52,245 nt of DNA. Source: a virus. Lineage: Duplodnaviria > Caudoviricetes. A model generated the notes under the pieces. It was not told the DNA's origin. It saw only the letters and a list, made by a program, of their open reading frames with translations, and did no database searches. Location of the stretch: positions 1-52,245 of IMG/VR virus record IMGVR_UViG_3300046009_002352. One strand, 5' to 3'. Below are positions 517 through 43,808 of the stretch, one piece after another. Made by a program: the position numbers and the translations under genes. The first letter of the stretch is position 1; each line of letters begins with the position of its first letter.

Positions 517-842
517 CAGCAGTAGAATGGTTAGTAAATAAAATATTAGTTGAAGTTGATAAATGTGATGATAAAGGCAATATAATCGGAGTTGATTATT
601 GGAATGCTTATAGAAGCTGCACAAATTTGTTAGAATATGTAAACAAAGCTAAGCGACTAGAAAAGCAACAACTAATTGAAATGCACGATAAAGGTTTTGA
701 CTCTGTTCAGCAATTGAATGACGATTACGCTATTGGATTTGCAAGATTTTATAAGATGGCAAATAATAATCAATATCATTTATATCCAAATGCAAGTATA
801 GAAGAACATTTAGAAATATTTAAAAAACAAAACGGATTATGA
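513..842 (+). CDS. Hypothetical phage protein (TAVEWL N-terminus)
   Basis: Likely start is the ATG at 513 (ATGA overlap); stop overlaps the sigma factor start. Confidence 0.7.
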   Translation: MTAVEWLVNKILVEVDKCDDKGNIIGVDYWNAYRSCTNLLEYVNKAKRLEKQQLIEMHDKGFDSVQQLNDDYAIGFARFYKMANNNQYHLYPNASIEEHLEIFKKQNGL

Positions 843-1603
843 AAAGTTACAACATACAAAATTACATAAGATATAAAGAAGATCTAATGCGCGTTAATAA
901 AAACAATGTGTCTGATAACTTTAGTTCTTACTCCAGAGATGATCTGATTGCTAGATTCCTACCACTTGTAGAGAATATTGCAAAGAAGTTTTCTACAACA
1001 ACACAAGCTAGCGGCGTATTAGATATAACTGATCTTATCCAATACGGAGCGATAGGATTAGTATTAGCTGTTGATAAAATTGATTGGACCACAATAAACG
1101 ATTCTAATGACCAAGAAAAAACAATTAAGTCGTTTCTATCAAAAAGAATTAAAGGCTCCATCAGAAGAGCTATAGACATCAATCGAGGCGCTATTAAACT
1201 TCCGGAGCATAAGCTTAATGAAATACGTAAGGATAATGGCCAAGACCATAAAATGGTTGCAATGTTTTTCAATTCAATATTCTTAAGCATCGATGAACAA
1301 ATGAGCGATGACGATGATGACAATATGTTATACCAGATTCCAGATAGAACTGAAGTTTATAATATAGGATTGATGAATACATATTTGACAGGACTATTAA
1401 GAAAGCATTTAACAGATACAGAGTTTGATGTATTACGCCTTAGCTATGGATTAGACTGTGATAAACATTCTGCAAATCAAATAGCAGACTATTTAGGTAT
1501 CGAAGGAGCAAGTGCTTATGTACGAGTTTCAGAGATTAAAAAGCAGGCAATCACTAAATTAGTTGCTAACGTTGATTCCTCACAAGTCCTTGATTTCCTA
1601 TAG
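839..1603 (+). CDS. Phage RNA polymerase sigma-70 family factor
   Basis: Region 2 (DLIQYGAIGLVLAVDKID...RIKGSIRRAI, IKLPEH) and region 4 HTH (RLSYGLD..SANQIADYLGI..VRVSEIKKQAITKL). Confidence 0.9.
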   Translation: MKSYNIQNYIRYKEDLMRVNKNNVSDNFSSYSRDDLIARFLPLVENIAKKFSTTTQASGVLDITDLIQYGAIGLVLAVDKIDWTTINDSNDQEKTIKSFLSKRIKGSIRRAIDINRGAIKLPEHKLNEIRKDNGQDHKMVAMFFNSIFLSIDEQMSDDDDDNMLYQIPDRTEVYNIGLMNTYLTGLLRKHLTDTEFDVLRLSYGLDCDKHSANQIADYLGIEGASAYVRVSEIKKQAITKLVANVDSSQVLDFL

Positions 1604-3003: not shown

Positions 3004-3177
3004 ATGAAAAAAGTAACATTAGTATTAGCGGTTTTAGGAATTATGTTTGTAGCTTGTAAACAAGAAAGCAACTTAACTAAGGATGAGGTTGTAACAGATA
3101 CAACTAAAACAGATTCAGTATCAGTTGATACAAACAGAGTTGATTCAACAACAGTAGATTCAGTAACTAATAAATAA
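3004..3177 (+). CDS. Small lipoprotein
   Basis: MKKVTLVLAVLGIMFVA-C lipobox followed by KQE and a D/S/T/V-rich tail; likely start ATG at 3004. Confidence 0.75.
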   Translation: MKKVTLVLAVLGIMFVACKQESNLTKDEVVTDTTKTDSVSVDTNRVDSTTVDSVTNK

Positions 3178-3183
3178 TTATAT

Positions 3184-3504
3184 ATGGCGAGTATTATTAA
3201 ATGTTCAATTAACTTAAATGACATTCCAAAACACAAGATCATTGATGGAAAGAAGGGAAAGTATCTTCCTATTACAATTACATTGAATGATGAGGTTGAT
3301 CAGTTTGGAAATCAAGGACCAGTAATGGTTGAGCAATCAAAAGAAGAGCGTGAATCAAAAGCTGCAAAAGTTTATCTTGGTAATGTAAAAGTTGTATGGA
3401 CAAATGGAACAAATGTTAATGCAGCTCCAAGACAAGACGGAGGGCAGCCTCAAACCGCACAACGTCAAGCAGCTCCTGCACCTGTAGATGATTTACCATT
3501 TTAA
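3184..3504 (+). CDS. Single-stranded DNA-binding protein-like
   Basis: Beta-rich core, Q/A/P linker and acidic SSB-type tail DDLPF; lies between recombination and primase genes. Confidence 0.75.
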   Translation: MASIIKCSINLNDIPKHKIIDGKKGKYLPITITLNDEVDQFGNQGPVMVEQSKEERESKAAKVYLGNVKVVWTNGTNVNAAPRQDGGQPQTAQRQAAPAPVDDLPF

Positions 3505-3555
3505 ACTTATGGATTTAAAATAAAATTAAATTTTAAACTTATAGATTTATAATAA
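3498..3555 (+). repeat. Imperfect direct repeat ATTTTAAACTTAT(G/A)GATTTA(A/T)AATAA, two copies 32 bp apart
   Basis: Copies start at 3498 and 3530. Confidence 0.8.
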
Positions 3556-3650
3556 GTGGCGTTAGGTGAGACCACTCGAGAGGTTAAGTAACATCACCTT
3601 TTATATCACTGCATGATAGCATTGTGCTAGATAACACACTTTAGTTAGTT

Positions 3651-3672
3651 AAACCCCATTCGTGGGGTTTTT
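3651..3672 (+). terminator. Intrinsic terminator
   Basis: AAACCCCA-TTCG-TGGGGTTT followed by Ts. Confidence 0.85.
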
Positions 3673-3695
3673 CTATCTATAATTAGTAATGTGCT

Positions 3696-3729
3696 TACAA
3701 TACAAACACGATAACAAAAAGATAATATA
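3696..3729 (+). promoter_or_regulatory. Putative early/middle phage promoter TACA-N5-AAYACG-N10-GATAATATA
   Basis: Same elements and spacing at 51819 and 52192; lies just after a terminator and before the primase-helicase. Confidence 0.75.
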
Positions 3730-3752
3730 AACGTAACAATTAAATTATATAG

Positions 3753-5471
3753 ATGCAAACAACAGAGATAAATGGTTTTTTGATTGACCAATTCAATCAA
3801 TACAAACTTGAAGAAGGTAAGTCTCAAGGCGTTTGTCCTTTATGCTCAGCTGATAGAAAAGGAGAACACAAAAAAGCTAAATGCGCTTCTTATGATTGGG
3901 AACGTGGTCTTGGAACTTGTCATAATTGTAATAAGTCATTTCAGTTACATACTTATCAACGTAAAGGTTCTAGCGAAAAAGTGTATGTTAAACCACCTGC
4001 TAAAGAACAAGTTGAAGAAATGCAAATAAGTGAACCTGTTGCTAACTGGTTTGCGACACGAGGTATTTCTAAAGAAACTCTTTATGAATTACAAATATCC
4101 GAGGGAAAAGAATTTATGCCTCAAACAGGTAAAGAAGAAAATGTTATTCAATTCAATTATTTTATAGGTAATGATCTTGTCAATGTAAAATACAGAGATG
4201 GCAGAAAGAACTTTAAACTTTACAAAGGGGCAGAAAAAATATTTTACAACATCAACAGCATAGTCGGTTGGGACTACTGTATATTAGTTGAGGGAGAGAT
4301 GGATGTCTTAGCTCTTACTGAAGCAGGAATAACAAACGCTATTTCAGTACCTAATGGTGCGACACTACATACAAATAATTTAGAATACCTAGATAATTGT
4401 ATTGATTATTTTGATGACAAGAATAAAATAATCATTGCTGTAGACTCAGATGAAGCTGGGCAAGCATTACAATCTGAATTAATCAGAAGGCTAGGATCTG
4501 AAACTTGTTATATAGCAACGTTTGAAGATTGTAAAGATGCAAATGAATACTTATTAAAATATGGTAAAGAAGCTTTAGCTAATAGAATAGGTAAAGCAAA
4601 ACCTGTACCATTAGAAAATGTTACAACATTTAAAGACATAGAAGATGAAATTACGGACTTTGTTAGGAATGGTTTCAAACCTGGCTTCCAAGTTGGATTA
4701 CCTAATTTCGATGATATATTCAGCACTTATACTGGGCAGTTTATTACTGTTACTGGTGTGCCTAGTTCGGGCAAGTCTGATTTCGTTGATCAAATGGTTG
4801 TAGGCTACAATAAAAACTACGGTTGGAAAACAGCTTATGCTTCACCAGAAAATTCACCGACATATTTGCATGCTCATAAGTTAATGCGTAAAGTTTGGGA
4901 AGGTATGCCTACAGAAGCAGATATTTATTCTGAAAGATGGAATCAAGTTGCGGACCACGTTAATGATAACTTTTTCTTTATTGACATGGAACGTTATACA
5001 TTGGATTCTGTTTTAAAGAAAGCTGGCGAGCTTGTTAAGCGTAAAGGAATCAAGTGTCTTGTTATAGATCCATTTAATAAAGTTAGAGACACAAATGCTG
5101 AGTCAGCCGATATCAATGCTTATACATTAGAATATCTTACTAAGATTGAGATATTTGCTAAAAAGTATGATGTTCTTGTAATGATTGTTGCGCATCCTAC
5201 TAAAATGTATAAAGGCTCAGATGGTAAGATTGAAGAACCTACCATGTATAATATTAAAGGTGGAGGTGAATGGTATGATGCTTCTTATCACGGCTTATTA
5301 GTTCACAGAGATTACGAAAACAAAACTGTTAAAGTAAAAGTACTTAAGGTTAAGTTCCAGAATCTTGGTGAGAATGGCGCAGAATGTCATTTTATTTGGG
5401 AGCCAAAGTCAGGTTGCTTTATTCCACATATACCAATAGACGCATCTAATGATCGTATGCCGTGGGAATAA
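3753..5471 (+). CDS. DNA primase-helicase (T7 gp4/Twinkle-like)
   Basis: Zn finger CPLC..CHNC, TOPRIM motifs VEGEMD, DSDEAG and CKDANE, SF4 helicase Walker A GVPSSGKS, LVIDPFN, IVAHP. Confidence 0.95.
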   Translation: MQTTEINGFLIDQFNQYKLEEGKSQGVCPLCSADRKGEHKKAKCASYDWERGLGTCHNCNKSFQLHTYQRKGSSEKVYVKPPAKEQVEEMQISEPVANWFATRGISKETLYELQISEGKEFMPQTGKEENVIQFNYFIGNDLVNVKYRDGRKNFKLYKGAEKIFYNINSIVGWDYCILVEGEMDVLALTEAGITNAISVPNGATLHTNNLEYLDNCIDYFDDKNKIIIAVDSDEAGQALQSELIRRLGSETCYIATFEDCKDANEYLLKYGKEALANRIGKAKPVPLENVTTFKDIEDEITDFVRNGFKPGFQVGLPNFDDIFSTYTGQFITVTGVPSSGKSDFVDQMVVGYNKNYGWKTAYASPENSPTYLHAHKLMRKVWEGMPTEADIYSERWNQVADHVNDNFFFIDMERYTLDSVLKKAGELVKRKGIKCLVIDPFNKVRDTNAESADINAYTLEYLTKIEIFAKKYDVLVMIVAHPTKMYKGSDGKIEEPTMYNIKGGGEWYDASYHGLLVHRDYENKTVKVKVLKVKFQNLGENGAECHFIWEPKSGCFIPHIPIDASNDRMPWE

Positions 5472-5486
5472 TAAAAATAGTAAAAT

Positions 5487-5753
5487 ATGAAATCAAGAGA
5501 ATTTAATAAATTAGCAAAAGAAGAACAGCAAAAAGAAATAGAAAAGTGTAATTCATTTGAATACTTTTATAAAAATTATTGTTGGAGAGAAGGTATGCCT
5601 GAATATTCAGAAAAAGCTTATAAAGAATACTTAGAATTTGCTGAAACAGCTAGATATATGATTGGCATAACAAACAGAAGAGGCAAGGCTATGTGTATGA
5701 GAGAGTACCCATTAACACCTGAAGAAGCGTTTAAAAATAAAAACTATGAGTAG
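5487..5753 (+). CDS. Hypothetical protein
   Basis: 88-aa ORF in operon context. Confidence 0.7.
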   Translation: MKSREFNKLAKEEQQKEIEKCNSFEYFYKNYCWREGMPEYSEKAYKEYLEFAETARYMIGITNRRGKAMCMREYPLTPEEAFKNKNYE

Positions 5754-6093
5754 TGGAAATAAAAAGAAAGGACAAATAGATATGGGTAATTATGTAGCTA
5801 AGCCTAGAGAACAAGATGCTTATGTTTGGTGCATACATAATAATATATTTATTGCGCCTAAAGCTAAAAGTTCATCTGAATGGTACCTTACTATTAACAT
5901 TAATAGTAAAGTAAGTACAAGTCCAATGGCTTATGAAAAGGTTGAAATATGGAAAGAACTTTATAAATTCTATTTATATTATTATGAAAAGTATAGTGGA
6001 GTAGAAGTTGAAAAGAAAGTTGAACCTAAAAAGTTTATAAAAGAGGAACCAATAAAACAAAAAGAAAAACAAATAATAAATACTTTATTTTAA
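5746..6093 (+). CDS. Hypothetical protein
   Basis: 115-aa ORF tightly packed upstream of the ThyA homolog. Confidence 0.7.
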   Translation: MSSGNKKKGQIDMGNYVAKPREQDAYVWCIHNNIFIAPKAKSSSEWYLTININSKVSTSPMAYEKVEIWKELYKFYLYYYEKYSGVEVEKKVEPKKFIKEEPIKQKEKQIINTLF

Positions 6094-6094
6094 T

Positions 6095-6862
6095 ATGACA
6101 AAATACGAATCACAATATAAAAATTTATTATATAGATGTTTAGGAGGCGGAGTACATCGCAAAGACAGAACAAAGGTAGGTTGCTTGTCAATATTCAATG
6201 CTAGTTTAAGAGTTGATCTTAATGATGGCTTCCCATTAATAACCGGAAGAAAAATGTTTCAAAAGACTTTTGATACGGAATTTGAATGGTTTATGCACGG
6301 CGAAACAAATATACAGAGATTCAAAGATGCTGGCGTAAAGATATGGGATGCTTGGGCCGATGAAAATGGAGATCTAGGACCAGTATATGGTTATCAAATG
6401 CGAAACTTTAACGGAGCTGGTGGTGATCAACTTAAAGCTGTAATAACAAGTTTAAGGAATGATCCAGACAGCAGAAGACATATAATATCATTATGGAATC
6501 CATTGCAGTTGCATCAAATGGCGTTACCTCCTTGCTATTTATATTTTCAATTTTTTGTAGAAGATGATAAATTAAACATGTTTGTTGTACAAAGATCCGG
6601 AGATTTGTTTTTAGGTATACCTTATGATGTAGCTTTGTTTTCAAAAATACTTTTGTATATTGCAGAAAAAACTGGATTAAAAGCAAATTATATTGATATA
6701 CAAGTTGTGGACGCTCATATTTATGACAATCAGCATAAAGCTGTAGAGGAATATCTTGCGAATGAAACTTTTCCATCTCCGAGCTATATTTACAAAAACG
6801 GAGCATTATCCCTAATAAATTACAATCACGGACCAGTAATAACGGCAAAAGTAGCCATTTAA
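6095..6862 (+). CDS. thyA: Thymidylate synthase homolog with predicted dCMP specificity (PPCY, PYD variant)
   Basis: DRT, GFPL, IWDAWADENGDLGPVYG, PDSRRHI, MALPPC, QRSGDLFLGIPYD, DAHIYDN, C-terminal AKVAI. Confidence 0.9.
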   Translation: MTKYESQYKNLLYRCLGGGVHRKDRTKVGCLSIFNASLRVDLNDGFPLITGRKMFQKTFDTEFEWFMHGETNIQRFKDAGVKIWDAWADENGDLGPVYGYQMRNFNGAGGDQLKAVITSLRNDPDSRRHIISLWNPLQLHQMALPPCYLYFQFFVEDDKLNMFVVQRSGDLFLGIPYDVALFSKILLYIAEKTGLKANYIDIQVVDAHIYDNQHKAVEEYLANETFPSPSYIYKNGALSLINYNHGPVITAKVAI

Positions 6863-6871
6863 TCTAAATAT

Positions 6872-7765
6872 ATGTATTTTATCTACCATATTCCAGGTAA
6901 AAAGATTGGCGTTACACGTAATCTTAATAAGAGAGTTGAGCTTGCACAGGGCTATATGCCTGGCGAATACGAAGTGCTAGAAATTAGCAATGACATAAAT
7001 TATGTTTCAAATCGCGAAAAGCAACTACAACAATTTTACGGTTATAAAGTTGATCGAGATTCCTACAAACAAGTAATAGACAGTAAAAATAAACTAAACA
7101 AAACAAAAACTATGAAATTAAATATCACAGAACAAACCGTAACTTTTCCATGTCCTCCAAATAAACTTAAAGGACAACTTTTAGACGCAATAGGATTAAC
7201 ATTTGAAACACAATTTGGTAAATATATATTAAACGATGAGCTAATAGATTGGATTGTACAAAACGCTACTGTGTCAATGTTTAATATCAATCGTAGTTTT
7301 GTATATAACAAAGCATTACACAACGCTTTTAATCAATTATCACAAACAGTACCTGAACCAATTAATTGGCCAACTAATCAAAATGTAAATTCATTAAATG
7401 ATATTTTTGAACGTTTTGCAGAAGCTATGCATCGGGCTGAATCAATTAAAGAAGAAGCTGATAAAGCTCCTAATGTTTATGATCGTATTAGAGAATGGGC
7501 AGATGAGCGAGGCATATACAAAAACGGTGATTCTAAAACCCAGTTTATTAAACTTCAAGAAGAGACCGGCGAACTTGCTAGAGCTATATTAAAGAAAGAT
7601 CGTGCGGAATTAATTGATGCAATTGGTGATGCAGTTGTTGTATTAACTAATCTGGCCGCATTAGAAGGATTAAAAATTGAAGACTGTGTTGAATCCGCTT
7701 ATGGCGTAATTAAATCAAGACAAGGCTCAATGGTAAATGGAACATTTGTAAAAAACACTTTATAA
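6872..7765 (+). CDS. Fusion protein: N-terminal GIY-YIG-like domain, middle domain, C-terminal MazG-like NTP pyrophosphohydrolase
   Basis: N-terminus YFIYHI..KIGVTRNLNKR...E; C-terminus IREWADERGI..QFIKLQEETGELA..LIDAIGDAVVVL..AYGVIKSRQG.MVNGTFVK. Confidence 0.8.
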   Translation: MYFIYHIPGKKIGVTRNLNKRVELAQGYMPGEYEVLEISNDINYVSNREKQLQQFYGYKVDRDSYKQVIDSKNKLNKTKTMKLNITEQTVTFPCPPNKLKGQLLDAIGLTFETQFGKYILNDELIDWIVQNATVSMFNINRSFVYNKALHNAFNQLSQTVPEPINWPTNQNVNSLNDIFERFAEAMHRAESIKEEADKAPNVYDRIREWADERGIYKNGDSKTQFIKLQEETGELARAILKKDRAELIDAIGDAVVVLTNLAALEGLKIEDCVESAYGVIKSRQGSMVNGTFVKNTL

Positions 7766-7766
7766 T

Positions 7767-8138
7767 ATGAAGCAAGAAATTAATTTTAGAGATCCAGTTG
7801 TACAGTCTGTTGTAAATAAATTTGTAGATCGTTCTGATGTTGGATATGCAAAGTATGGTAAAACATTACGTAATGATACTTCAGATATATTTGTATGGCT
7901 TAATCATTTGCAAGAAGAATTAATGGATGCAACATTATACTTACAACGATTAAAAGAAGAAATATCATCTTTGCGTGAGGAAAAAGAATTACTTAATAGT
8001 ATACATGATATTGACGTTATTGATCCGGAGTTTATAAAGCCTCCTCCTGTATGGAGAGCAAATCGCGGCGACGAAATGACTTTTACAATTGACGAAGGTG
8101 AACCATTTGGTATTTTCTATAGAACATTTAGTAAATGA
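7767..8138 (+). CDS. Putative all-alpha NTP pyrophosphatase-like protein
   Basis: RSDVGYAKYGKTL..WLNHLQEELMDATLY acidic helix motif. Confidence 0.55.
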   Translation: MKQEINFRDPVVQSVVNKFVDRSDVGYAKYGKTLRNDTSDIFVWLNHLQEELMDATLYLQRLKEEISSLREEKELLNSIHDIDVIDPEFIKPPPVWRANRGDEMTFTIDEGEPFGIFYRTFSK

Positions 8139-8590
8139 AAAAACGATCAACAAAAAGAGGGCCAGTAGTTTCAAAGAAGGTAATATATGATGGTATTACC
8201 TTTGCTTCAGGTCTTGAGAAATATATGTACAAAGCTTTAAAAGAAGCTGGTATAGAATTTCAATATGAGGGGGTAACGTTTGAATTGTTGCCCTCTTTTA
8301 TATTTGAAAATGTTTCAATGGAAAGACAATCAAACGGCAAAGGTGATTTTATTAATAGGGGTTTGAAAAAAATATTAAACCTTAAATACACACCAGACTT
8401 TGTTGGCGATACTTTTATAATTGAAACTAAAGGTAGAGCTAATGAATCTTTTCCATTACGTTGGAAACTATTTAAAAAATGGATGATGGATAATAATGAC
8501 ACAAGAGCATTATATAAACCACAGAATCAATCAGAGTGTAATGCTACAGTAGATAGAATATTAAAAACAACAAAAACAAAAAACAAATGA
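8135..8590 (+). CDS. T7 endonuclease I-like PD-(D/E)XK nuclease / Holliday junction resolvase
   Basis: FASGLE, FQYE, YTPDF, IIETKG. Confidence 0.8.
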   Translation: MKKRSTKRGPVVSKKVIYDGITFASGLEKYMYKALKEAGIEFQYEGVTFELLPSFIFENVSMERQSNGKGDFINRGLKKILNLKYTPDFVGDTFIIETKGRANESFPLRWKLFKKWMMDNNDTRALYKPQNQSECNATVDRILKTTKTKNK

Positions 8591-8736
8591 ACAAATTTAG
8601 TGAAAAAAGTTGGTCAATAACCGTTGGGTTATATCCAGGTGTACTGTTTGGTTTAAGATTATATAAAGAACCATCTTATGATACTTATGTATTGTATTTG
8701 CCATTTATAGACATTGCATTTGAAATAGATAATTAA
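8587..8736 (+). CDS. Small hypothetical protein (49 aa, missing from the ORF track)
   Basis: MNKFSEKSWSITVGLYPGVLFGLRLYKEPSYDTYVLYLPFIDIAFEIDN*; ATGA overlap and fills the gap before the RNR gene. Confidence 0.7.
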   Translation: MNKFSEKSWSITVGLYPGVLFGLRLYKEPSYDTYVLYLPFIDIAFEIDN

Positions 8737-8749
8737 TTAATAAATAAAT

Positions 8750-10618
8750 ATGAGCCTTAGTTTAGATAAACAAATTTTAAGTGATATTACTGTATACACA
8801 AAGTATGCAAAGTATTTGCCAAACAAAGAAAGAAGAGAGACATGGGAAGAATTAGTAACCAGGAATATGGATATGCACAAAGCCAAATTTCCACAAATAA
8901 AAGAAGCAATTGAACAGATATACAAAAACTTTGTATTCACTAAAAAAGTTTTACCTTCGATGCGAAGCCTCCAGTTTGGTGGTAAAGCTATTGAACTTAA
9001 TAATGCTAGGATCTATAATTGTGCTTTTTTACCTGTTGATAGTATTCATAGTTTCTCTGAGACTATGTTTTTATTGCTTGGTGGAACTGGTGTCGGTTAT
9101 TCGGTCCAAAATCACCAAATAGAAAAGCTACCTGAAATTAGAAAACCTAATTACGATCGTAAGAAAAGATACGTTGTTCAGGATAGTATAATTGGCTGGG
9201 CTGATGCAATTAAAACGTTATTCAAATCATACACAGGGGAGCTTACTTCTCACATCGAATTTGATTTGTCCGATATACGCCAGAAAGGAGCATTGCTTGT
9301 TACGGCAGGGGGTAAAGCACCAGGACCAGAACCATTGCGTATAGCATTAGTAAAGATTGAGGCTATCTTGAGAACGAAAGAGGACCGATCAAAACTTACG
9401 GATATTGAATGCCATGATATTCAGTGCCATATTGCCGATGCAGTTTTAGCCGGAGGAATACGTAGAGCAGCAATGATTTCTCTATTTGATCTTGATAGTA
9501 CGGCAATGTTAAATTGTAAAGCTGGCAATTGGTGGGAAGAAAATCCACAAAGAGGTAGAGCAAATAATTCAGTAGTACTTTTAAGACATAAAATTGATAA
9601 GAAAACATTTGACAAAGTTTGGGAAAGAATTGAAGCATCTGGCTCAGGAGAACCCGGAATATATCTTACTAATGATAAGGATTGGGGTACTAACCCTTGT
9701 TGCGAGATTGCTTTACGACCGTATCAGTTTTGTAATTTAACTGAGATTAATATGGCAGATATTGAAGATCAAGACGATCTTAACGCAAGAGCATCTGCAG
9801 CATCATTTTTAGGAACATTACAAGCATCATATTCAGACTTTCATTATCTACGTGATATATGGAGAAAGAATACAGAGAAGGATGCGTTACTTGGAGTTTC
9901 AATGACAGGTATTGCATCTAAGTCAAACTTAGAATTAAATTATGAAGAAGCAGCAAACGTCGTTAAGAAAACAAACAAAGAAACAGCTGAAGCGATTGGA
10001 ATTAATGTCGCAGCGAGAACTACAGCCGTTAAACCAGCTGGCACGACTAGTTTGGTACTTGGTACTTCTAGCGGGATACATGCTTGGCATAATGACTATT
10101 ATATACGCCGCATGCGCTTAGGCAAGAATGAAGCTATATATTCTTATCTTGCTATAAATCATCCAGAATTGCTAGAAGATGAATATTTTAATCCAACATT
10201 ACAATCAGTTATTTCAGTTCCACAAAAGGCTCCAGAAGGCGCTATAACGAGACATGAATCAACATTAGATCTATTAGAAAGAGTAAAACTAATTTCTAAA
10301 GATTGGGTTAAGACTGGCCATGATAAAGGCAACAACACGCACAATGTATCTTGTACAGTTTCTGTAAGAGATGATGAGTGGAAAATTATTGGTGAATGGA
10401 TGTGGGCTAATAAAGAATACTATAATGGTTTATCGGTATTGCCATACAATGGTGGAACATATAAGCAAACCCCATTTGAAGATTGTACAAAAGAAGTATA
10501 CGATGAAATGATGTCTACATTAAAAGATGTTGATTTATCAAAAGTAATTGAAGTTCAAGATAATACTAACTTTGTGGATGCAGCAGCCTGCGGTGGAGGG
10601 AATTGTGAGATTGTATAG
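8750..10618 (+). CDS. nrdJ: Class II (adenosylcobalamin-dependent) ribonucleotide reductase
   Basis: YNCAF, GGTGVGYS, GGIRRAAMI, TNPCCEI, FCNLTEIN, VKPAGTTS, C-terminal ACGGGNCEI; no R2 subunit gene nearby. Confidence 0.93.
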   Translation: MSLSLDKQILSDITVYTKYAKYLPNKERRETWEELVTRNMDMHKAKFPQIKEAIEQIYKNFVFTKKVLPSMRSLQFGGKAIELNNARIYNCAFLPVDSIHSFSETMFLLLGGTGVGYSVQNHQIEKLPEIRKPNYDRKKRYVVQDSIIGWADAIKTLFKSYTGELTSHIEFDLSDIRQKGALLVTAGGKAPGPEPLRIALVKIEAILRTKEDRSKLTDIECHDIQCHIADAVLAGGIRRAAMISLFDLDSTAMLNCKAGNWWEENPQRGRANNSVVLLRHKIDKKTFDKVWERIEASGSGEPGIYLTNDKDWGTNPCCEIALRPYQFCNLTEINMADIEDQDDLNARASAASFLGTLQASYSDFHYLRDIWRKNTEKDALLGVSMTGIASKSNLELNYEEAANVVKKTNKETAEAIGINVAARTTAVKPAGTTSLVLGTSSGIHAWHNDYYIRRMRLGKNEAIYSYLAINHPELLEDEYFNPTLQSVISVPQKAPEGAITRHESTLDLLERVKLISKDWVKTGHDKGNNTHNVSCTVSVRDDEWKIIGEWMWANKEYYNGLSVLPYNGGTYKQTPFEDCTKEVYDEMMSTLKDVDLSKVIEVQDNTNFVDAAACGGGNCEIV

Positions 10619-11005: not shown

Positions 11006-14000
11006 TTAATCACCGCCCATCTTTCTCTTTCTTTTTTTCAAAGCTTGCTCTCTTTTTTCTAAAGCTTTCTTTCTTCTAAATTCAAGTCTTTCTTTAGGAT
11101 CCATTTCCATTAAAGCTTTTTTATCAGCTTTTCTTTTTTCTTCTCTTGAAATTATTCCTTTTTCAATACCTTCCTCTTTTCTTTTAGCTTTAGCTTCTAC
11201 TTTGATTTTCTCATTCTCTTCATTCTTAACATTTAATTCCCATTCTTTCCAACCTAATGCTAATGCTAGTCTTTGAATTTTAGTATTACGAGAATCAAGT
11301 GCTTCAGATACATTACCAACTTTTTCAACAACACGATCAAGCGGTAAATTTGTTGTAGCAACAACTACATTACCAACTATGTCATAATTAGGGCTAAGAT
11401 TTAATCTTCCATCTTTAGTTATTTCCCAACCACGAGCTTCTATTACATCTTTATCGAATTTTTTAATTCTATAAGCTCCATATAATTTTTTAGCTTTTGA
11501 ACTAATAGGAGGTGATATACTAGCAGCAGCTAATATTGTATAAGCATGGTCAGCAAACATCTTTCTTTCTTCTTGTTTGTTGTATTCCATTGCAGCATTT
11601 TTAATAGTAGAAATTAAAGCTCCATAAACACCAGATCCTCTAAGAACTGTATCAGACATACCATTTAATATACTTACTGCCTTGTCATCTTGTTTTTTCT
11701 TAAGCTTTTCATATTCTTTTTTCTGCTCGCTTGACATTTTTGCAATAGCCTCTTCGTCTTCTTCTTCAAATGGTAAAAACAATGCAGACTGTAATGCAGA
11801 GAATAAAACATTCTGTAAAGCTCCGTAATACATTATTTTTGACAAATTAGTTTTCCAATCTCCACGCTTATTAACTAAGTCTAAGGTTGCTTTTTTTATC
11901 TCTCTATTATATTGCATAGGAGTATTAGCAAAAGCTAACACAAGACGCCCTAATGAGGTCGTTTGTTGCTTAGATATATACATTGGATCAGCCGATTGCA
12001 TTGATTTATCTGTTATCAAAGAAAAATCAACCCAAGCTTTGTCTTCAGCTTCTTCAAGCGTATTTATTTTATTACCATCCTCATCAACTTGCTTTAAATA
12101 AGTGTTAACACGATTTCTATAAAATGTTGAACCCCCTAAAGCAATAGAGAAACTATCCGCTGCTTGTGTTGGAGTAAATCCAATTTTTTGTAAATAAGAT
12201 AATACTCCTCTTGCTTTGTTAGTTGCGCTATTTGCGGCATTAGCAATCTCAGCTTGAGTAACATCCGCTTTTAAACCAGATCTTCTTTCACGCATTTTAT
12301 CTGAATTAATAATCTTAGCAAAGTCAGACCAATATTGTTTTTGATCAGCAAATGCTGTTGCAGCAGCTAAAGGATTATTATCATTCCAGTTTAAATAGTT
12401 AGTTGACGATATAGTCTGTAATAATGCTGATCTTACATTAAAGAACATGATCGCAGCAGTAGAACCATTAATCCAATTCATCCATATATTAGTAAGTCTA
12501 TCAGATCCTTCTGGTCTATTCTTACCATTCTTCATTCTATATAAAGAATCTTCCAATGCTATTCTAACATTCGTCCCGTAAGTTGCTTGTACTTTATTAA
12601 GGTTTTCAGTAGTAAAAATTGCATTAGCATTTTCTATAAACTCAGATAACCATTTCTTTCTACCTTCACCTTCTGTTATATTATGTAAGTCAGATATAAT
12701 AGTTTCACTATCCCAAGTTGTAGAAGGAGGCATCCATCCACCATCTTGTCTACCGGCTATAGATAATGCTTCAGCAAAACTAATAAGATTTGGATCATTC
12801 TTAACCAAGAATACTAATTTGTTTTTATCTCTTCTATTTAACCCCGGAACATCTATATCATTCTTATGCCATAAGTAAACCCTAACAGCTTGATCATAAG
12901 TAAATTGTTTATCTGGAGTTAACTTTTCTAATTTCTTTTTAATATCTGGGAAACTATTAAGTAACTTTTTGTATTCCTTCTTTATAGATTGACGAACAGA
13001 ATCCAAAGCATTAATACCTTTAACATAAGGTATAACTAGATTAGCATCAAAAAATTCTTGATCTTTTTCACCTTGTTTTCCTTTGCCAGCAAACATATAA
13101 GTGGTTAACCCTCTAAAGTCATCTGCAGATGGCGGAACAAAGAAAGATAAAGTATTTGCTTTTGTACCTGTTCTTTTTGCAACAATATCTGAGATTTTTT
13201 CGTATGATGGAACATTTTTATTACGCGCAAGCATATCATTAAACGCATAATCTAATGATTTACTATCATTTACTTTTAATTTATCTTGCGTCTTGTTGTT
13301 TTTTGGCGTGTTTATTAAAAACAAAGTGTCTTCCCCATTATTTACTTGCTCCGTTGTATAAGTCCATCCAAGTCTAGATCCTATTGTAGCTGCCATTGTT
13401 TTATATAATCTTATACGGCTAGGTTCGAGTGCAGTAAAAACAATACCTTCTATATTATTTTTTTGTATATATTCAACCAATCCATTAGTAACTATGCTTA
13501 AAACCTTAAAAGAATTACCGATTTCTAAAACATCTGTACCCATATCATCTTCCTGAAATGTAGTAAAAAGTAAATTTTCATTATCCGTTAAGTAGGTTAA
13601 TGGTACTCCTAAATCATCGGTTATTTTTTTAAAAGCTTTGGTATATGTTGGGTCCTGATCAAGTCCATATTTTTTTAAAGGGGAGACGTATATACTATAA
13701 TTATACTCCCCTACTTTAAAAGCAGCGCTCGTTTCCCCTAATTTAGTTGTCCATTGTAAATTAGCTTTTGTTGTTAAACTAAATTTAGGTCTTGACTTCC
13801 ATTTAGGATCTGAATTTATCCAATCATTTAATTGCTTTTCTGCAAATTTAATTGTCTCTACATTAAGTGCGTCATTTACGGCAGCCATTAATGATCCACC
13901 TTCATTTTCACGGTCTTCAATAACATCAAAAGCATAGTCAACAGACTTATTCATGCCTTCAATAGTATTATTAGAAACAATCCCCCACCAATCTTCAATA

Positions 14001-17000
14001 GATTTGTTAAGATCATTTAATACTTCAAAAGATGTTTCAGCATCAATTCTTTTAATATCATTTTTAGCAATATAATCAGAAACTATTGTAATACCTTTAT
14101 CGTCTTTATTAAAAGAGTTTAAATTATTCTCTAAAGATTTAGAAAACATTCTTTTTGATTTTCTTTCAATTATATTTTTTGCTTTTTTGTTATTAAATTT
14201 AGATATATTTGAGCCTTTATTTTCAATATATTTTTGTATAATTTCTATTTTATCTGCATTAAAATTCAAATAACCTCTAGTCGACAATATATTGTCTGCA
14301 CTTATTTGATATTCAAAAGTTAAATTAAATAATTTATTTGGGTCAAAGTCTCCTCCAAAAATATTTGAAAATTTATCAACACCCGTATAACCGTTAAAAT
14401 AGTCAAACAACCTGCCGCTAATGCTTATAATATCTTGAGGTTGAGATTTTTTATTATTTAAAGCTTTTGCAAAATTTACTCCAACCTCAAATCGGTTATT
14501 TTTTATATCAGCATATCTTCTTCCTCCCTCTAATTGTTCGTTTTTTCCTTTTTTTGCACCAAATTTTTCCTGTAATTTTATAGAATCATCTAATGATAAT
14601 TTAATATTGCCAGCAGGAGTAACCGTATAATTAGTTATTCCCGCTTCCTTAACTACATTTTTTAATAAAGAGCTTTCGTTACCAGCTATATGATTAACTA
14701 TTTCACTTATTTGATTATATAATACACTTCCTTTATTACCAAAGATTCCTTTTTTCAGCGCTGTTTTTAACGAATTACCTGTTATAGAAGTTAATGGAAT
14801 CCTACCACTAGCGGCTTTTTTAGCTTCAACAATTATAGCTAGTTTTGATAATTTTTCTTTTATTACAATATCTGGCACGTATTGGTTGTTGCCTCCGACT
14901 ACCTCAACATTGTAATCTTTGCCGACATATTTAGATATGAATGTACCTAACATTTTTTCTTGCGCTTGCCAATGAAATCTATCAAATGTCTTGCCTGCTG
15001 CAATTAATATGTTATATAAGGAGTCTAGCTCGTTGTCATCTGCATCAATTATTTTATTAATTGTTTGATTAAAAAGGCTATTTGTCTTAATATAGAAATT
15101 TTTGTCATTTTTCATTTCGTATATAAGAGCGTTTACTTCTGCTTTAGTAATTGAAAATTTAACATTGCCACGTTCTGCTAGTCTATTAAATTCTTCTAGC
15201 ATTATTTTTTCAGTTACAGCTCCTTTTAATTCTTGATTTCTATTTAGAGCTTCTGATATTATGCCATCGTTAGCAATGTCATCAGATATAATATCAAATG
15301 AAACTTCTTCAGCCAACGCTTTGGCTAAAGATTCTTTTCTGCCTCTAATTGGATTGCCTGTCTCTAAATCTATAATTGAAGATAAGAAATCAATTGTTGG
15401 TACATTTTTATTAACCTCAGGTAATCTTCTTACCATTTCATGACCAGCAGTTCTACCTGCTAAATCAACATCAACCGATTCACGATCTATTTTTTTACCT
15501 TTCCATTCAGGAAAATTAACCCATCTACCGTTTATTCTTTTTTGAATAGCAAATGGCATTCCACCAACTCCATCTTTACCCATTAACCATGTAGTAGTCA
15601 TATTTTCAAGAATTGTTTTCTTATTGACAATTAGCCAATTTTGTAATTCTTGATTTTCTTTACCACCCATTGCTTTTTTAATATCAATATCGGCTTGTTT
15701 ACCCATCTCATCTCTTATCTCACTAATTAACGGAGCGACAGTCTTATTCAAGGAAGTCTTTTCATTAATTTTGGATTTCAATGTTCTTGCAACCGGTAAG
15801 ATTTTAGCTTGGATATTAGCAATAACATCTGGACTAAATACGCCAGATTCTAATATGTTTTGGAAACGTTTTCTTTCTGGCAATGAAGGCTTAGTTACTT
15901 CTACATCTTCATTAGCTAACTTAGTCATTTCAGAAACATCCTCAGTAAATACAACATCCGCAACTTCACCACTTTTTAGAGCTCCTTTCATACGGTTTAT
16001 ATACTGAGCATTTATATATCCATATAAACTATTATTTCTAGCAGGATCAAATTTAGCAATATAAGGGATCATCGATGTTCTTACATAACTAACCATTTCT
16101 TCCATATTAAACCCATCGATACCACCTCTATCTTTATTTGTAAGATCTATTACGGTACCTTTTGCTGTTTTCCAGTTTCTAGACTTAACTTTAACCATTT
16201 TGTCAAGCTCTGAATAAATTTCTGGATTATTAGGATTAAATCCTTTTGGATCATTACCAATAGCATCAAGTTTAGCTTTTGCTTTATTAGCAACATCACT
16301 TACCTCTACATCTTCTTTTGCTTTTGTAGGTTTCTTTTCTGTAGGTTTAGTTTCAAGTTTATTTTCTGCTGGTTTAACACCTGCTCTCTTTTCTTCATAT
16401 TCTTTACGAGCCAATTCAGCTTCCTCTTGTTCGAGAGCTAGCATTTGGGCATCATAACGATCCATATCAATTTCGTTATCATTTAATTGTCTATCAAGCT
16501 CATCCATTCTTTCCTCAATAGATTTTGAACCTTTAATGAAACTTGCAGATACTTCACCATCTTTAGATATAAGTTTACCTTTTGCTTCGCTTCTTAATAA
16601 TCTACGTTGAGCAATATTTAATTCTTTATCTTTAGTTATTGTATTATTATAATCCCTTATGAAATTAAATACATCTCTACCAGAGTTAAATTCTATACTT
16701 GTTAAACCTAAATCTTGGAAAAATCTACGTATTTGATCACCAACTTTAGTAAAGAAGCTTTCTTTATATTTTAAATTTCCGGTAATAAGAGCATCGGAAA
16801 ATATATTTAATAACTCTTCCATCTGAGTACCAGAATCTTCGCCTCCATAATTACGTTCTAATCTACCTATAACCTTATCGTTAAGATAAAGCTCAGGGCT
16901 ATTAGATAATAAGTAATCTGTTAATGATTCACCTAATGCTATTTGGCTATCTGATTTAGCAACTGTTTTTGCTAATAATTTATGTAAAAATTCGTGTGAT

Positions 17001-37907: not shown

Positions 37908-38179
37908 TATTTAGACCTCCCTTCTGCAAAACCTTTAAACACTTTTGTGTCTGTTTGCTTTTCAGAGTCTTCTAGCATTCTTTCTTCTTCTTGTATTCTA
38001 TTTAGAATTTCAAGCGCATCAAAAATAGCTAATTTTTTAGTTGCTGCTGCATTCTTTAATCTATCCGCAGATATATCGTCTCCGCTATCTACAATCTTTT
38101 CTTCAGCAACCTTTATTAATTCCTCAACTGCTTTCTGCCCAGCTCGGATTATATTCAGTTTCGTCTCCTTTATATTCAT
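37907..38179 (-). CDS. Putative terminase small subunit
   Basis: 90-aa helical protein immediately upstream of and coupled to the large subunit. Confidence 0.5.
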   Translation of the reverse strand: MNIKETKLNIIRAGQKAVEELIKVAEEKIVDSGDDISADRLKNAAATKKLAIFDALEILNRIQEEERMLEDSEKQTDTKVFKGFAEGRSK

Positions 38180-38735
38180 ATTTAATTACAATATCATTAG
38201 ATTTCATACAATACAATCGCTGGCCATCTATTATAAACTCAAACTCACTATATGGTTTGTAACCTACAACATCGCCAGGAGTGATTCCGAGCCCGTTTAA
38301 GGACTCATTACCATATTTTAGTATTCCAATATGCTTTTGCTCTTTGGATAGCTTAAATTGGTCTTTATTTTTTATTGGCATTACAAAACAACGGTCACCA
38401 TTTGACTTCCATTTATTATCTGTTTTGTATAAATAGATCTGATCAGGTGAACAAAAATATAGATCTTCTTTAAAATATGATCTACTATTTTTTTGTCTTC
38501 CCTTAATGTCGTAAAATCTTCTAAATACATTATGATGTATAACAACAATATCCCCTATTTTTATATCTGTTTTGCCAAACAATGGTACTGATACCACTTC
38601 AGCTAATTTATTTACAGACTTAAAAGTTTCGATTCTTGTGTTCGTTATTAGTTTTTTACCATCAACATCAACTTCATTATTGTATCTAGATCCTACAGGT
38701 TTAATTATAAAATCAAATACAGCTGTCATATTCAT
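38124..38735 (-). CDS. Tandem double GroES-like co-chaperonin
   Basis: Two GroES-pattern halves: FIIKP..AEVVSV..IKIGDIVV and GDRCFVMP..GILKYG..ITPGDVVGYKPYSEFEFIIDGQRLYCMKSNDIV. Confidence 0.65.
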   Translation of the reverse strand: MNMTAVFDFIIKPVGSRYNNEVDVDGKKLITNTRIETFKSVNKLAEVVSVPLFGKTDIKIGDIVVIHHNVFRRFYDIKGRQKNSRSYFKEDLYFCSPDQIYLYKTDNKWKSNGDRCFVMPIKNKDQFKLSKEQKHIGILKYGNESLNGLGITPGDVVGYKPYSEFEFIIDGQRLYCMKSNDIVIKYEYKGDETEYNPSWAESS

Positions 38736-41562: not shown

Positions 41563-42005
41563 CTTGTTTTATCTTTATTTACATTATTTATTGCTGATCG
41601 TAATACTATATCCGTATAAGTATTATTTTTCATTATTTTGTTACTTCGTGGAGTAGTTGGTATATCTTCTACCCCAAGCATTATACGGTACATTCGACTT
41701 ATCAGTTGTTTGCACTTGAATGAAACTTTATATATGTTGTATTTCTGGGTTGTATGATTTCTATTTCGCCATACTACTATCCATCCTTCTTTTAACAAAT
41801 TGTTCCAGCGCTTATTGTCCCAACTATATGCGTAAGTACCTATCTTATAATCTTGCTTGGTAAAAAACTCCATGCAATCAAAATATACTAATAATTCTAA
41901 ATCAGCATCCGTAAGATCATAATTTCTACAAGCCCATTTGCGTATTAATCTATAATGTTTTAATAAGCCAAGATCTTTTATATCCTTTGCTTCTAATCTT
42001 CTCAT
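41559..42005 (-). CDS. Phage protein, possible winged-helix
   Basis: LTDADLELLVYF..LLKEGWIVVW..IYKVSFKCKQLI resembles a MarR-type wHTH; coupled to groES. Confidence 0.6.
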   Translation of the reverse strand: MRRLEAKDIKDLGLLKHYRLIRKWACRNYDLTDADLELLVYFDCMEFFTKQDYKIGTYAYSWDNKRWNNLLKEGWIVVWRNRNHTTQKYNIYKVSFKCKQLISRMYRIMLGVEDIPTTPRSNKIMKNNTYTDIVLRSAINNVNKDKTR

Positions 42006-42262
42006 ATAACTATTACGACATCTTGTAATCTTATAACCTGATAGTCCTGGCCTTCAAACTCTATTCCATGCCCAGCAGCTTTATCATAATAAATAACATC
42101 GGCTTCTTTTAAACATTTAATATCCTCACTCACAGAAACTACAATAGCTTCTTTATAACGTATATTTTCTTTATCTTTTTCTTTTAATAATAAACCGCTA
42201 TCCGTTTTTGATAATCCTACTTTTTTCGGAAGTATCACTATATTATTACCTATTGCCCTCAT
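42002..42262 (-). CDS. groES: Co-chaperonin GroES
   Basis: KTDSGLLL mobile loop, AIVVSVS, GHGIEFEGQDYQVIRLQDVV; adjacent to groEL. Confidence 0.9.
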   Translation of the reverse strand: MRAIGNNIVILPKKVGLSKTDSGLLLKEKDKENIRYKEAIVVSVSEDIKCLKEADVIYYDKAAGHGIEFEGQDYQVIRLQDVVIVI

Positions 42263-43808
42263 TAACTCTTAAATTATTAATTACACAATCGGTTGATAAT
42301 ATTGTAACAGCTACGGATGCTGCATTTTTTAATGCGCTCTTAGTAACAGATAGAGGATCAATAATTCCTGCTTCTATCATGTTCACTTGTTCCCCGGTTA
42401 CAGCATTTAATCCAGAGCCTTCTAAGCGATTCCAATCATCTCCTGGATGATCAATACCAGCATTACTTAATATTGTCTTAAATGGAGCCTTAATAGCTCT
42501 TAGAAGAGCAATACCTCCATTGTTCGTTGTTAATACATTTCTTGAAGCATCTAAAAGAGCAATTCCTCCGCCGGGAACAATTCCTTCTTTAATAGCGGCT
42601 TTAGTTGCACAAATTGCATCTTCAACTCTATCAGCTTTTTCTTTTAATTCTAAATCAGATCCAGCACCTACTTTTACAACAGCAACTTTTGCTGATAGTC
42701 TAGCTAATCTTTTTTCTAATCTAATAACATCTCCTGGAGCAGTAGCAACCTGTAATTGTGAATTTAACTCATCAATTAATTCTTGTACTTCTTCTTTTGT
42801 TTCACCAACGTGCAATATCGTTTCACTATCATCTGTTATTGCTTTCAAACAACTACCTAAACATTCAATATCTATAAGATCCATATCGTCTCCTAGATCT
42901 TCGTTTATAATTGTAGCTCCAGTTAATAAAGCAAGATCCATTAGGGTATCCTTTTTTGTGATACCATAAGTTGGTGCATTGATAACATTAACTTTTATAT
43001 TACCTTTAACTTTATTCATTGCTAAAGCAGATAGTACAGTTTGTTCCATGTCTGCAATAATCAATAACGGCTTGTTATTCTTTATTACATATTCTAAAAC
43101 TGATTGTATCTGACGAATAGATTCCACCGGTGATTCAACAATCAATACTAATGGATTTTCTAATTCGGCAATTCTTTTATTTGGGTTTGTGATAAAGTTT
43201 GAATTTACTAATCCTTTATCATATTGTACACCATCTATAATTTCTATTTCTGTTTCTGGATTTGCTGATGATTCCATCATAACAATACCAGTTTCACCAA
43301 CTGCTCTAAAAGCATCACCAATAATTTTACCAAGTACTGGATCGTTGTTTGTTGATATAGTGGCAATGTGATCTATCATATCTCCAGTTACTGGAACTTT
43401 AATAGATTCTAAATATTCTATAACTTTATCTACTGTAGTCTCAATACCGTTTTTTAAATCTCTTGAACTTACAGTATCTTGAATTGCATAAGCTTCTTCT
43501 AAAATAGCATGTGCTAATACAGTTGCTGTAGTTGTGCCATCACCAGCTTCCTTAACTGTTTTTCTAGCTGCTTCTTTTAAAAGTCTTGCTCCCATATTCT
43601 CTACAGGATCTAATAATGTAATGCTGTCTGCAACCGTAACCCCGTCTTTTGTAATTAACGGTCTGCCTTTACTATCTTCTAACATTACGCATTTTCCACC
43701 AGCTCCTAATGTTGAGCTAACTGCTTTAGTTAACTTTGTTATACCGGCAAATACATTATCTCGTGCTTCGTTACCAAAGCTGAGATTCTTTACTATTTCA
43801 TCTGACAT
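42246..43808 (-). CDS. groEL: Chaperonin GroEL
   Basis: ITKDGVTVA, AGDGTTTATVLA, DRVEDAICATKAA..EGIVPGGG, GIIDPLSVTKSALKNAASVA. Confidence 0.97.
   Translation of the reverse strand: MSDEIVKNLSFGNEARDNVFAGITKLTKAVSSTLGAGGKCVMLEDSKGRPLITKDGVTVADSITLLDPVENMGARLLKEAARKTVKEAGDGTTTATVLAHAILEEAYAIQDTVSSRDLKNGIETTVDKVIEYLESIKVPVTGDMIDHIATISTNNDPVLGKIIGDAFRAVGETGIVMMESSANPETEIEIIDGVQYDKGLVNSNFITNPNKRIAELENPLVLIVESPVESIRQIQSVLEYVIKNNKPLLIIADMEQTVLSALAMNKVKGNIKVNVINAPTYGITKKDTLMDLALLTGATIINEDLGDDMDLIDIECLGSCLKAITDDSETILHVGETKEEVQELIDELNSQLQVATAPGDVIRLEKRLARLSAKVAVVKVGAGSDLELKEKADRVEDAICATKAAIKEGIVPGGGIALLDASRNVLTTNNGGIALLRAIKAPFKTILSNAGIDHPGDDWNRLEGSGLNAVTGEQVNMIEAGIIDPLSVTKSALKNAASVAVTILSTDCVINNLRVNEGNR

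Follow-up and report, generated by a model that had tools for sequence, protein, structure and literature searches.

A thymidylate synthase homolog paired with a MazG-type gene is a candidate dCMP 5-methylase of freshwater phages

The window analyzed here is the whole 52,245-nucleotide (nt) stretch of the IMG/VR virus record IMGVR_UViG_3300046009_002352 (Duplodnaviria; Caudoviricetes). At positions 6095 to 6862, it carries a thymidylate synthase (TS) family gene whose product, judging by its residues, is probably a methylase of deoxycytidine monophosphate (dCMP) that feeds 5-methylcytosine (5mC) into phage DNA. A preference for dCMP and a methyl product, taken alone, appear somewhat more probable than this complete reading. 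Both the residue signature and the enzyme class have been published, and the gene is another case of a known enzyme class; some originality lies in a strictly coupled Tyr147, a fixed MazG partner, and the apparent absence of kinase, deaminase, and polymerase genes from the phage.

Results

Family assignment and active-site residues

The gene is the sole long open reading frame (ORF) at its position and is translated into 255 amino acids (aa). Pfam PF00303 (Thymidylat_synt) matches residues 7 to 254 of the 255 with an E value of 4.4e-76 (256 bits against a cut-off of 24.3). The product also matches PHROG 160, and a PDB search returned 127 distinct thymidylate synthase sequences (best E value, 2.5e-62; E. 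coli entries, ~1e-57). Reference numbering was taken from E. coli ThyA (from NC_000913), with T4 gp42 and the deoxycytidylate methyltransferase of Xanthomonas phage Xp12 aligned alongside. In this alignment, the window protein is 42% identical to E. coli ThyA, 27% identical to the Xp12 enzyme, and 25% identical to T4 gp42. Positions below follow E. coli numbering unless the window protein is specified; the corresponding codons are listed in Table 1.

The active site differs from that of E. coli ThyA at three positions, where His147 is replaced by Tyr, Asn177 by Asp, and Phe176 by Tyr. The last of these changes is present in ordinary His/Asn enzymes as well, as seen in the cluster-representative rows described below. 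The C-terminal tail is present, with tail residues I258, A260, V262, and A263 identical to those of E. coli. The initial annotation of this stretch had described a near-canonical ThyA with Tyr148 and Asp178 (numbering of the window protein) that keeps the IWDAW folate-site motif and the C terminus; its coordinates, residues, and motifs all proved correct upon translation and alignment. Its expectation that an automated pipeline would label the gene plain thyA was also borne out: the NCBIfam model TIGR03284 scores 221.1 bits, above its cut-off of 108.35, and homologs of the gene product have already been named "thymidylate synthase" by the Joint Genome Institute (JGI). The other seven of the eight NCBIfam TS equivalog models listed, that is, TIGR03283 and all six NF models, were missed (NF002497 scored 256.1 against a cut-off of 327).

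Conservation and coupling of Tyr147 and Asp177

Conservation was assessed in a close-family set of 121 sequences, consisting of the query and its 120 best homologs (72 to 100% identity) from a collection of 5.8 billion proteins. Cys-Tyr and Pro-Tyr-Asp, with Tyr at 147 and Asp at 177, were found in all 121 sequences, as was Leu at position 143. Likewise invariant were R21, E58, W80, W83, Y94, R126, R127, C146, Q165, R166, S167, D169, H207, and Y209, a list that includes both tryptophans of the folate-site motif. Related loci yielded 75 distinct DNA versions of the core, of which 73 encode Tyr by TAT and 2 by TAC; Asp is encoded by GAT in 64 and by GAC in 11. Since both synonymous codons are in use, selection acts on the amino acids Tyr147 and Asp177. 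These residues are neither a sequencing error nor a matter of chance, which removes the concern, raised with the initial annotation, that the Asp codon might have been misread.

That annotation had also proposed to check whether Tyr and Asp co-occur in homologs. Beyond the close family, we considered a distant set of 151 rows, comprising the query and the 150 best 50%-identity cluster representatives. The 147/177 residue pairs in this set were His/Asn in 109 rows, Tyr/Asp in 15, His/Asp in 10, and Pro/Asp in 6; 1 row had Tyr but ended before position 177, and 10 rows had other combinations. Tyr147 was thus accompanied by Asp177 in 15 rows and by Asn in none (Fisher's exact test, ~7e-12, uncorrected for relatedness of the rows).

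In a maximum likelihood tree of 142 rows, the Tyr/Asp rows were located outside a 125-row clade (86% Shimodaira-Hasegawa–like approximate likelihood ratio test support) that holds both E. coli ThyA and the Xp12 enzyme. The base of the tree was unresolved, with the Tyr/Asp rows forming a basal comb, and a single origin is neither shown nor excluded. A megablast search of window positions 5000 to 9000 against phages gave no match. When the whole protein was used in tblastn, 4220 phage records were matched, all at less than 60% identity, and the 46-aa active-site core performed no better. The Tyr/Asp pair was absent from the six cultured or named phages inspected (Arcadia, ort11, GBK2, Cr30, B40-8, and MedDCM-S28-C10), which is a small sample.

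One of these six deserves a separate remark. The uncultured marine Autographiviridae phage MedDCM-OCT-S28-C10 (AP013540.1, positions 3164 to 5185; our locus L045) encodes a Cys147/Asp177 TS homolog that is annotated as thyA and is flanked by genes for a nucleoside triphosphate (NTP) pyrophosphohydrolase, a deoxythymidine monophosphate (dTMP) kinase, and a dCMP deaminase. This locus is likely another cytosine-modifying module.

Residue signatures of substrate and product

In the MetaGPA study (eLife 2021; PMC8670742), 433 TS sequences from sewage and coastal viromes were aligned. Cytosine-modified contigs were told apart from unmodified ones best by positions 177 and 147, with Asp177 found in the modified set. 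Asn177 is described as excluding dCMP, while the Asn-to-Asp change switches TS to dCMP (PMC8670742, PMC13326640). According to the rules given in Nucleic Acids Research 2026 (PMC13326640), Asp177 denotes dCMP, Asp or Glu at 143 denotes a hydroxymethyl product, and Asn169 denotes 5-hydroxy-dCMP. A structural account of T4 dCMP hydroxymethylase (IUCrJ 2019; PMC6400193) adds that Asp145 activates the substrate water, that Val stands for Trp83, and that the C-terminal tail that seals TS is missing. Functional data come from a preprint (bioRxiv 10.1101/2024.12.05.627091), in which the Xp12 homolog and five of seven metagenomic Asp177 homologs produced 5-methyldeoxycytidine (5mdC) in vivo when coexpressed with the T4 deoxynucleoside monophosphate (dNMP) kinase gp1; the remaining two of the seven gave no 5mdC.

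When the close family is compared with these signatures, all 121 sequences carry the dCMP-selecting Asp at 177 and lack the Asn177 and His147 of canonical ThyA. Agarwalla et al. reportedly found in 1997 that altering the His, in the His199/N229D double mutant, improves the preference for dCMP. As for the product, Leu143 and Trp83 in all 121 sequences, together with the four tail residues shared with E. coli, correspond to methyl transfer. Overall, all published diagnostic residues suggest a dCMP substrate and a methyl product.

A different C5 product, such as 5-hydroxymethylcytosine (5hmC) or 5-hydroxycytosine that is then modified further, would make the gene a hydroxymethylase or a related enzyme. 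Asp177 is indeed common to T4 gp42 and the 5-hydroxy-dCMP synthases, and the two Asp177 homologs without 5mdC in the preprint could be taken in the same sense. Yet every published signature of such enzymes that was tested is absent: Leu stands in place of the Asp or Glu expected at 143 of a T4 gp42–type enzyme, Trp83 and the tail are retained, and position 169 is occupied in all 121 sequences by Asp and not by the Asn of the RB69/DLP3-type 5-hydroxy-dCMP synthases. In addition, no glycosyltransferase or other decorating enzyme turned up when 50 ORFs of the window and 35 ORFs outside it were scanned with Pfam and PHROG profiles. We therefore regard a hydroxymethylated or hydroxylated product as improbable.

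The MazG partner and the gene neighborhood

The next gene starts 10 nt after the TS homolog and encodes 297 aa, with a MazG-type domain in the C-terminal 100 residues. This domain is supported by matches to PF03819 MazG (E value, 6.9e-7), PF01503 PRA-PH (1.5e-5), MazG-like PHROG families (2e-32), and PDB entry 1vmg (5e-4). Residues 1 to 175 are placed by the Atlas near T5orf172 (GIY-YIG-like) clusters; since the family is found on 11 to 48% of the cluster members, this placement is a lead only. The MazG fusion is followed by a small conserved ORF and a resolvase gene. The small ORF matched PHROGs of unknown function only, with no match to Pfam, PDB, or a named Atlas cluster.

In IMG/VR loci whose TS is at least 53% identical to the window protein, the gene order was kept and the Tyr/Asp enzyme was present in 28 of 28 cases. 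A wider profile-based scan confirmed 559 related loci, and the best 80, which partially overlap with the 28-locus set, were inspected. Every one of these 80 loci contained the Tyr/Asp enzyme and, downstream on the same strand, a MazG-domain gene at a distance of at most 150 nt (72 loci) or at most 650 nt (all loci). The MazG fusion was full length in 69 loci, while in the other 11 the MazG domain was free-standing (~100 aa). The conserved unit is thus TS plus MazG rather than the fusion.

As can be seen from four loci annotated with Pfam, at least three different backbones carry the pair. L118 has a backbone of the crAss-like type. In L123 (positions 3065 to 4541), the Tyr/Asp TS and MazG genes are joined by a dCMP/MafB19-type deaminase gene and are inserted between the large terminase and portal genes of an HK97-type siphovirus. 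L087 and L127 represent a third backbone with a Terminase_3 large subunit, and L087 also encodes Erf and RusA. The three-gene insert of L123, the only one of the 80 loci with a deaminase, looks like a mobile cassette, and its TS-MazG-deaminase trio is the arrangement published for 5mC phages (bioRxiv 10.1101/2024.12.05.627091). The same source ranks PRA-PH/MazG as one of the five domains that most often co-locate with deaminase-TS modules in modified contigs. As a side observation, a DUF6378 protein is encoded directly upstream of the Tyr/Asp TS in L087 (3645 to 3917) and L127 (4824 to 5114).

The conserved pairing also bears on whether the gene could encode an ordinary thymidylate synthase that converts deoxyuridine monophosphate (dUMP) to dTMP, with Tyr147 and Asp177 being tolerated or mutually compensating. 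The identity to E. coli ThyA is above that to any known dCMP enzyme, the TIGR03284 equivalog cut-off is passed, and the active site is otherwise unchanged. Nevertheless, a dUMP enzyme is difficult to reconcile with the published role of Asn177 in excluding dCMP and of Asp as the switch (PMC8670742, PMC13326640) or with the enrichment of Asp177 homologs in cytosine-modified contigs (PMC8670742). It also fits poorly with the scores below the cut-offs of most TS equivalog models. Furthermore, the His/Asn enzymes checked in Arcadia, ort11, and GBK2 show neither the strict Tyr-Asp coupling nor the fixed MazG partner. An ordinary thymidylate synthase is therefore very unlikely, slightly more so than a hydroxymethylase.

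Gene content of the phage

The window covers 81% of the phage genome; the closest complete relatives are 63 to 68 kilobases (kb) long, and two of them have direct terminal repeats. Features located in the window are collected in Table 1. The TS homolog is placed in an early replication block, and the ribonucleotide reductase provides the deoxynucleoside triphosphate (dNTP) supply of this early module. Other recognized products include crAss-type muzzle proteins, a portal protein, a large terminase, an Erf annealing protein, and an exonuclease. A 2965-aa ORF located beside the muzzle protein genes (11006 to 19903, minus strand) had no Pfam or PHROG match at an E value of 0.001; by analogy, given its neighbors, it may encode the giant virion RNA polymerase of crAss-like phages.

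Table 1. Features of the window and of the TS homolog (residue numbers of the window protein; equivalent E. coli ThyA residues in the last column).
Feature	Position	Strand	Basis or equivalent
Sigma-factor-like protein, heads the early region, conserved in relatives	839..1603	+	Sigma70_r2 E 4e-5; phrog_351 E 3e-19
Primase-helicase, only recognizable replication enzyme	3753..5471	+	phrog_239 E 7e-91; Toprim and DnaB_C domains
TS-family gene, 255 aa, candidate dCMP 5-methylase (5-methyl-dCMP synthase)	6095..6862	+	PF00303 and residue alignment
Folate-site motif IWDAW, residues 83-87	6341..6355	+	E. coli I79-W83
Leu144 (TTA), three residues ahead of catalytic Cys	6524..6526	+	E. coli Leu143
Cys147 (catalytic nucleophile, TGC) and Tyr148 (TAT, 6536-6538)	6533..6538	+	E. 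coli C146 and H147
Asp170 (GAT)	6602..6604	+	E. coli Asp169
Asp178 (GAT)	6626..6628	+	E. coli Asn177, pyrimidine-specificity residue
T5orf172/GIY-YIG-like N-terminal part (lead) and C-terminal MazG-type NTP pyrophosphatase; candidate dCTP pyrophosphatase	6872..7765	+	Profile matches
Small conserved ORF, 123 aa, accompanies the TS-MazG pair in the lineage	7767..8138	+	tblastn match in 63/80 loci
Ribonucleotide reductase, B12-dependent type by insertion domain	8750..10618	+	phrog_367 E 1.9e-130; PF21995, PF02867
Second, longer GroES-like protein	38124..38735	-	Pfam/PHROG
Cpn10 co-chaperonin	42002..42262	-	Pfam/PHROG
GroEL-type chaperonin	42246..43808	-	Pfam/PHROG

Missing functions and palindrome avoidance

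Several observations weigh against the proposal that the gene supplies 5mC to phage DNA. Six-frame searches of five records, the window and four complete relatives of 64 to 68 kb (G001 to G003 and G005), revealed no PolA, no PolB, and no dNMP/thymidylate kinase (PF02223) in any of the five. In a separate search, no dCMP-family deaminase (PF00383) was found in five of five complete relatives. The Pfam and PHROG scans of the 50 window ORFs and of the 35 ORFs in ~10.5 kb beyond the window likewise revealed no kinase, polymerase, or deaminase, although small ORFs without assigned function remain and these absences are not proof. The companion genes described in published cases, a 5mC-selective deaminase and a dNMP kinase, were thus each not found in five of five records, while the MazG partner is present. 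Since the primase-helicase is the only recognizable replication enzyme, replication is probably carried out by the host polymerase, and the steps from 5-methyl-dCMP (5mdCMP) to DNA would have to rest on host enzymes. Moreover, the rule linking Leu143 to a methyl product is imperfect, as the residue aligned there in the Xp12 enzyme is Asn. Consequently, the interpretation offered in the initial annotation stands in part. Its view of the protein as a methyl-producing dCMP enzyme agrees with the residues at Asp177, Leu143, Trp83, Asp169, and the tail; its extension to genome-wide 5mC as in Xp12 is unsupported as written, given a lineage with no recognizable dNMP kinase, deaminase, or DNA polymerase.

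The avoidance of restriction sites was estimated from Markov-corrected palindrome counts in the window. CATG had an observed-to-expected ratio of 0.54, GAATTC was observed 0 times (13.1 expected), CATATG 0 times (11.7 expected), and GATATC once (13.5 expected). The CATG, CATATG, and GATATC values were similar in the complete relative G001. In vitro, C5-modified DNA is refractory to EcoRI and NlaIII (Flodman 2020 supplement): NlaIII (CATG) cuts neither the 5hmC-containing DNA of T4gt nor Xp12 DNA, and EcoRI (GAATTC) does not cut T4gt DNA, while Xp12 has no site for it. Avoidance of GAATTC and CATG is therefore unexpected in fully modified DNA and counts weakly against the proposal as well. In contrast, T4gt DNA is cut by both EcoRV (GATATC), for which Xp12 has no site, and NdeI (CATATG), for which the Xp12 result is inconclusive; avoidance of these two palindromes is thus compatible with modification. 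The palindrome signal is mixed, with two of the four avoidances fitting a C5-modified genome and two not.

The same observations are relevant to an alternative in which dCMP, and perhaps dUMP, is methylated mainly to supply deoxythymidine triphosphate (dTTP). Here, a deaminase of the host, or one that escaped recognition, would turn 5mdCMP or 5-methyl-dCTP (5mdCTP) into dTMP or dTTP, and little 5mC would enter DNA. Exactly one TS-family match was found in each of the five six-frame–searched records, and neither ThyX nor a C5 DNA methyltransferase was found in any of them; the phages thus have no other thymidylate boost. In published cases, Asp177 TS genes usually adjoin a deaminase that converts 5mdCTP to dTTP, and this conversion is proposed as the dTTP route of 5mC phages (bioRxiv 10.1101/2024.12.05.627091). 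The deaminase gene located directly after the TS-MazG pair in L123 would suit such a route, and the avoidance of GAATTC and CATG suggests sites that are still exposed to restriction. However, the five complete relatives searched have no recognizable deaminase, the published deaminase route coexists with full 5mC substitution and does not replace it (bioRxiv 10.1101/2024.12.05.627091), and a MazG partner that drains deoxycytidine triphosphate (dCTP) fits replacement of cytosine better than supply of thymidylate. We consider a role mainly in dTTP supply unlikely, though it is the most plausible of the three alternatives to a dCMP methylase that feeds 5mC into phage DNA.

Discussion

If the gene encodes a dCMP methylase, the residues described above suggest how it may work. 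The TS-fold enzyme would take dCMP instead of dUMP, and the one-carbon unit of methylene-tetrahydrofolate would be transferred and reduced to yield 5mdCMP (Enzyme Commission 2.1.1.54 type). In the numbering of the window protein, Cys147 would attack C6 of the pyrimidine, and Asp178 would act as hydrogen-bond acceptor for the N4 amino group and protonate cytosine N3, in a role equivalent to that of E. coli Asn177 for uracil. Substitution of Tyr for E. coli His147 would remove a group tuned to O4 of uracil. Exclusion of water by Leu144, Trp87, and the closed C-terminal tail would allow hydride transfer (methyl) to outcompete hydration (hydroxymethyl). The downstream MazG-type pyrophosphatase would convert dCTP to dCMP, at once feeding the methylase and lowering the level of competing dCTP. 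From there, incorporation of 5mdCMP into phage DNA would depend on the kinases and the replicase of the host, and the 5mC-substituted DNA would resist most restriction enzymes.

A broader model can be put forward tentatively, and we think it rather less likely to be right than wrong. According to it, a two-gene cassette of a Tyr147/Asp177 dCMP methylase and a MazG-type dCTP pyrophosphatase would suffice to replace C with 5mC in phages that have no polymerase, kinase, or deaminase of their own and use host kinases and the host replicase. The cassette would move as a unit among unrelated backbones, including a podovirus with crAss-type muzzle proteins, an HK97-type siphovirus, and the Terminase_3 type. 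Canonical ThyA would have given rise to the Tyr147 lineage independently of the Xp12 lineage, which has Pro at 147.

The habitat is fresh water. Related sequence was found in 20 public runs (Logan contigs) from 14 studies, and six of these runs contained half or more of the sampled words; one run may represent the source sample. If a dCMP methylase feeding 5mC into DNA is confirmed, the short list of phages known to have 5mC-substituted DNA would grow by a widespread group from lake water, and substitution would appear achievable with a mobile set of very few genes plus the replication enzymes of the host. This would matter for the reading of viromes, since 5mC DNA behaves differently in bisulfite, enzymatic methyl sequencing (EM-seq), nanopore, and restriction-based methods. 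It would also matter for annotation, in which Tyr/Asp genes are uniformly labeled as plain thymidylate synthase. A near-canonical ThyA scaffold that methylates dCMP would, if real, be an attractive tool for enzyme sourcing. No new question is opened, as the signature and enzyme class are in the literature. The novelty implied by the initial annotation does not hold: positions 147 and 177 have been described (PMC8670742), and natural Asp177 homologs, including that of Xp12, make 5mdC (bioRxiv 10.1101/2024.12.05.627091).

Comparison with known enzymes places the window protein as follows. With canonical ThyA (Enzyme Commission 2.1.1.45), it shares length, motifs, the tail, substantial identity to the E. 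coli enzyme, and the label given by Pfam, PHROGs, TIGR03284, and JGI, but it has Tyr, Asp, and Tyr where canonical ThyA has His147, Asn177, and Phe176. With T4 gp42, it shares the TS fold, the catalytic Cys, and the dCMP-selecting Asp equivalent to position 177. The two differ in that T4 gp42 aligns an Asp at the Leu143 site, has no tail in the alignment, and has Val at the Trp83 site (PMC6400193), whereas Leu, Trp, and the complete tail are all retained in the window protein.

The Xp12 deoxycytidylate methyltransferase (QNN97214; MT664984, 45326 to 46195) makes 5mdCMP for a fully 5mC genome (bioRxiv 10.1101/2024.12.05.627091). Common to both enzymes are the TS fold, the catalytic Cys, Asp177, and a non-His residue at 147. 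This residue is Pro in Xp12 and Tyr in the window protein, and the Xp12 enzyme further differs by a diverged folate motif and a long insertion. The Xp12 gene also adjoins genes for a dCMP deaminase and dihydrofolate reductase, neither of which is found in the window phage lineage. The metagenomic homologs of the MetaGPA study and the preprint share Asp177, an origin in uncultured phages with predicted modified cytosine, and a frequently co-located PRA-PH/MazG gene. The homologs in the preprint were chosen for an adjoining deaminase (bioRxiv 10.1101/2024.12.05.627091), whereas the window lineage has none in five of five complete genomes. Asp177 is also shared with the engineered E. coli N177D and L. 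casei N229D enzymes, in which this change on an otherwise canonical ThyA scaffold yields a dCMP methylase (PMC8670742, PMC13326640); compared with these mutants, the window protein is natural, conserved, and has Tyr at 147.

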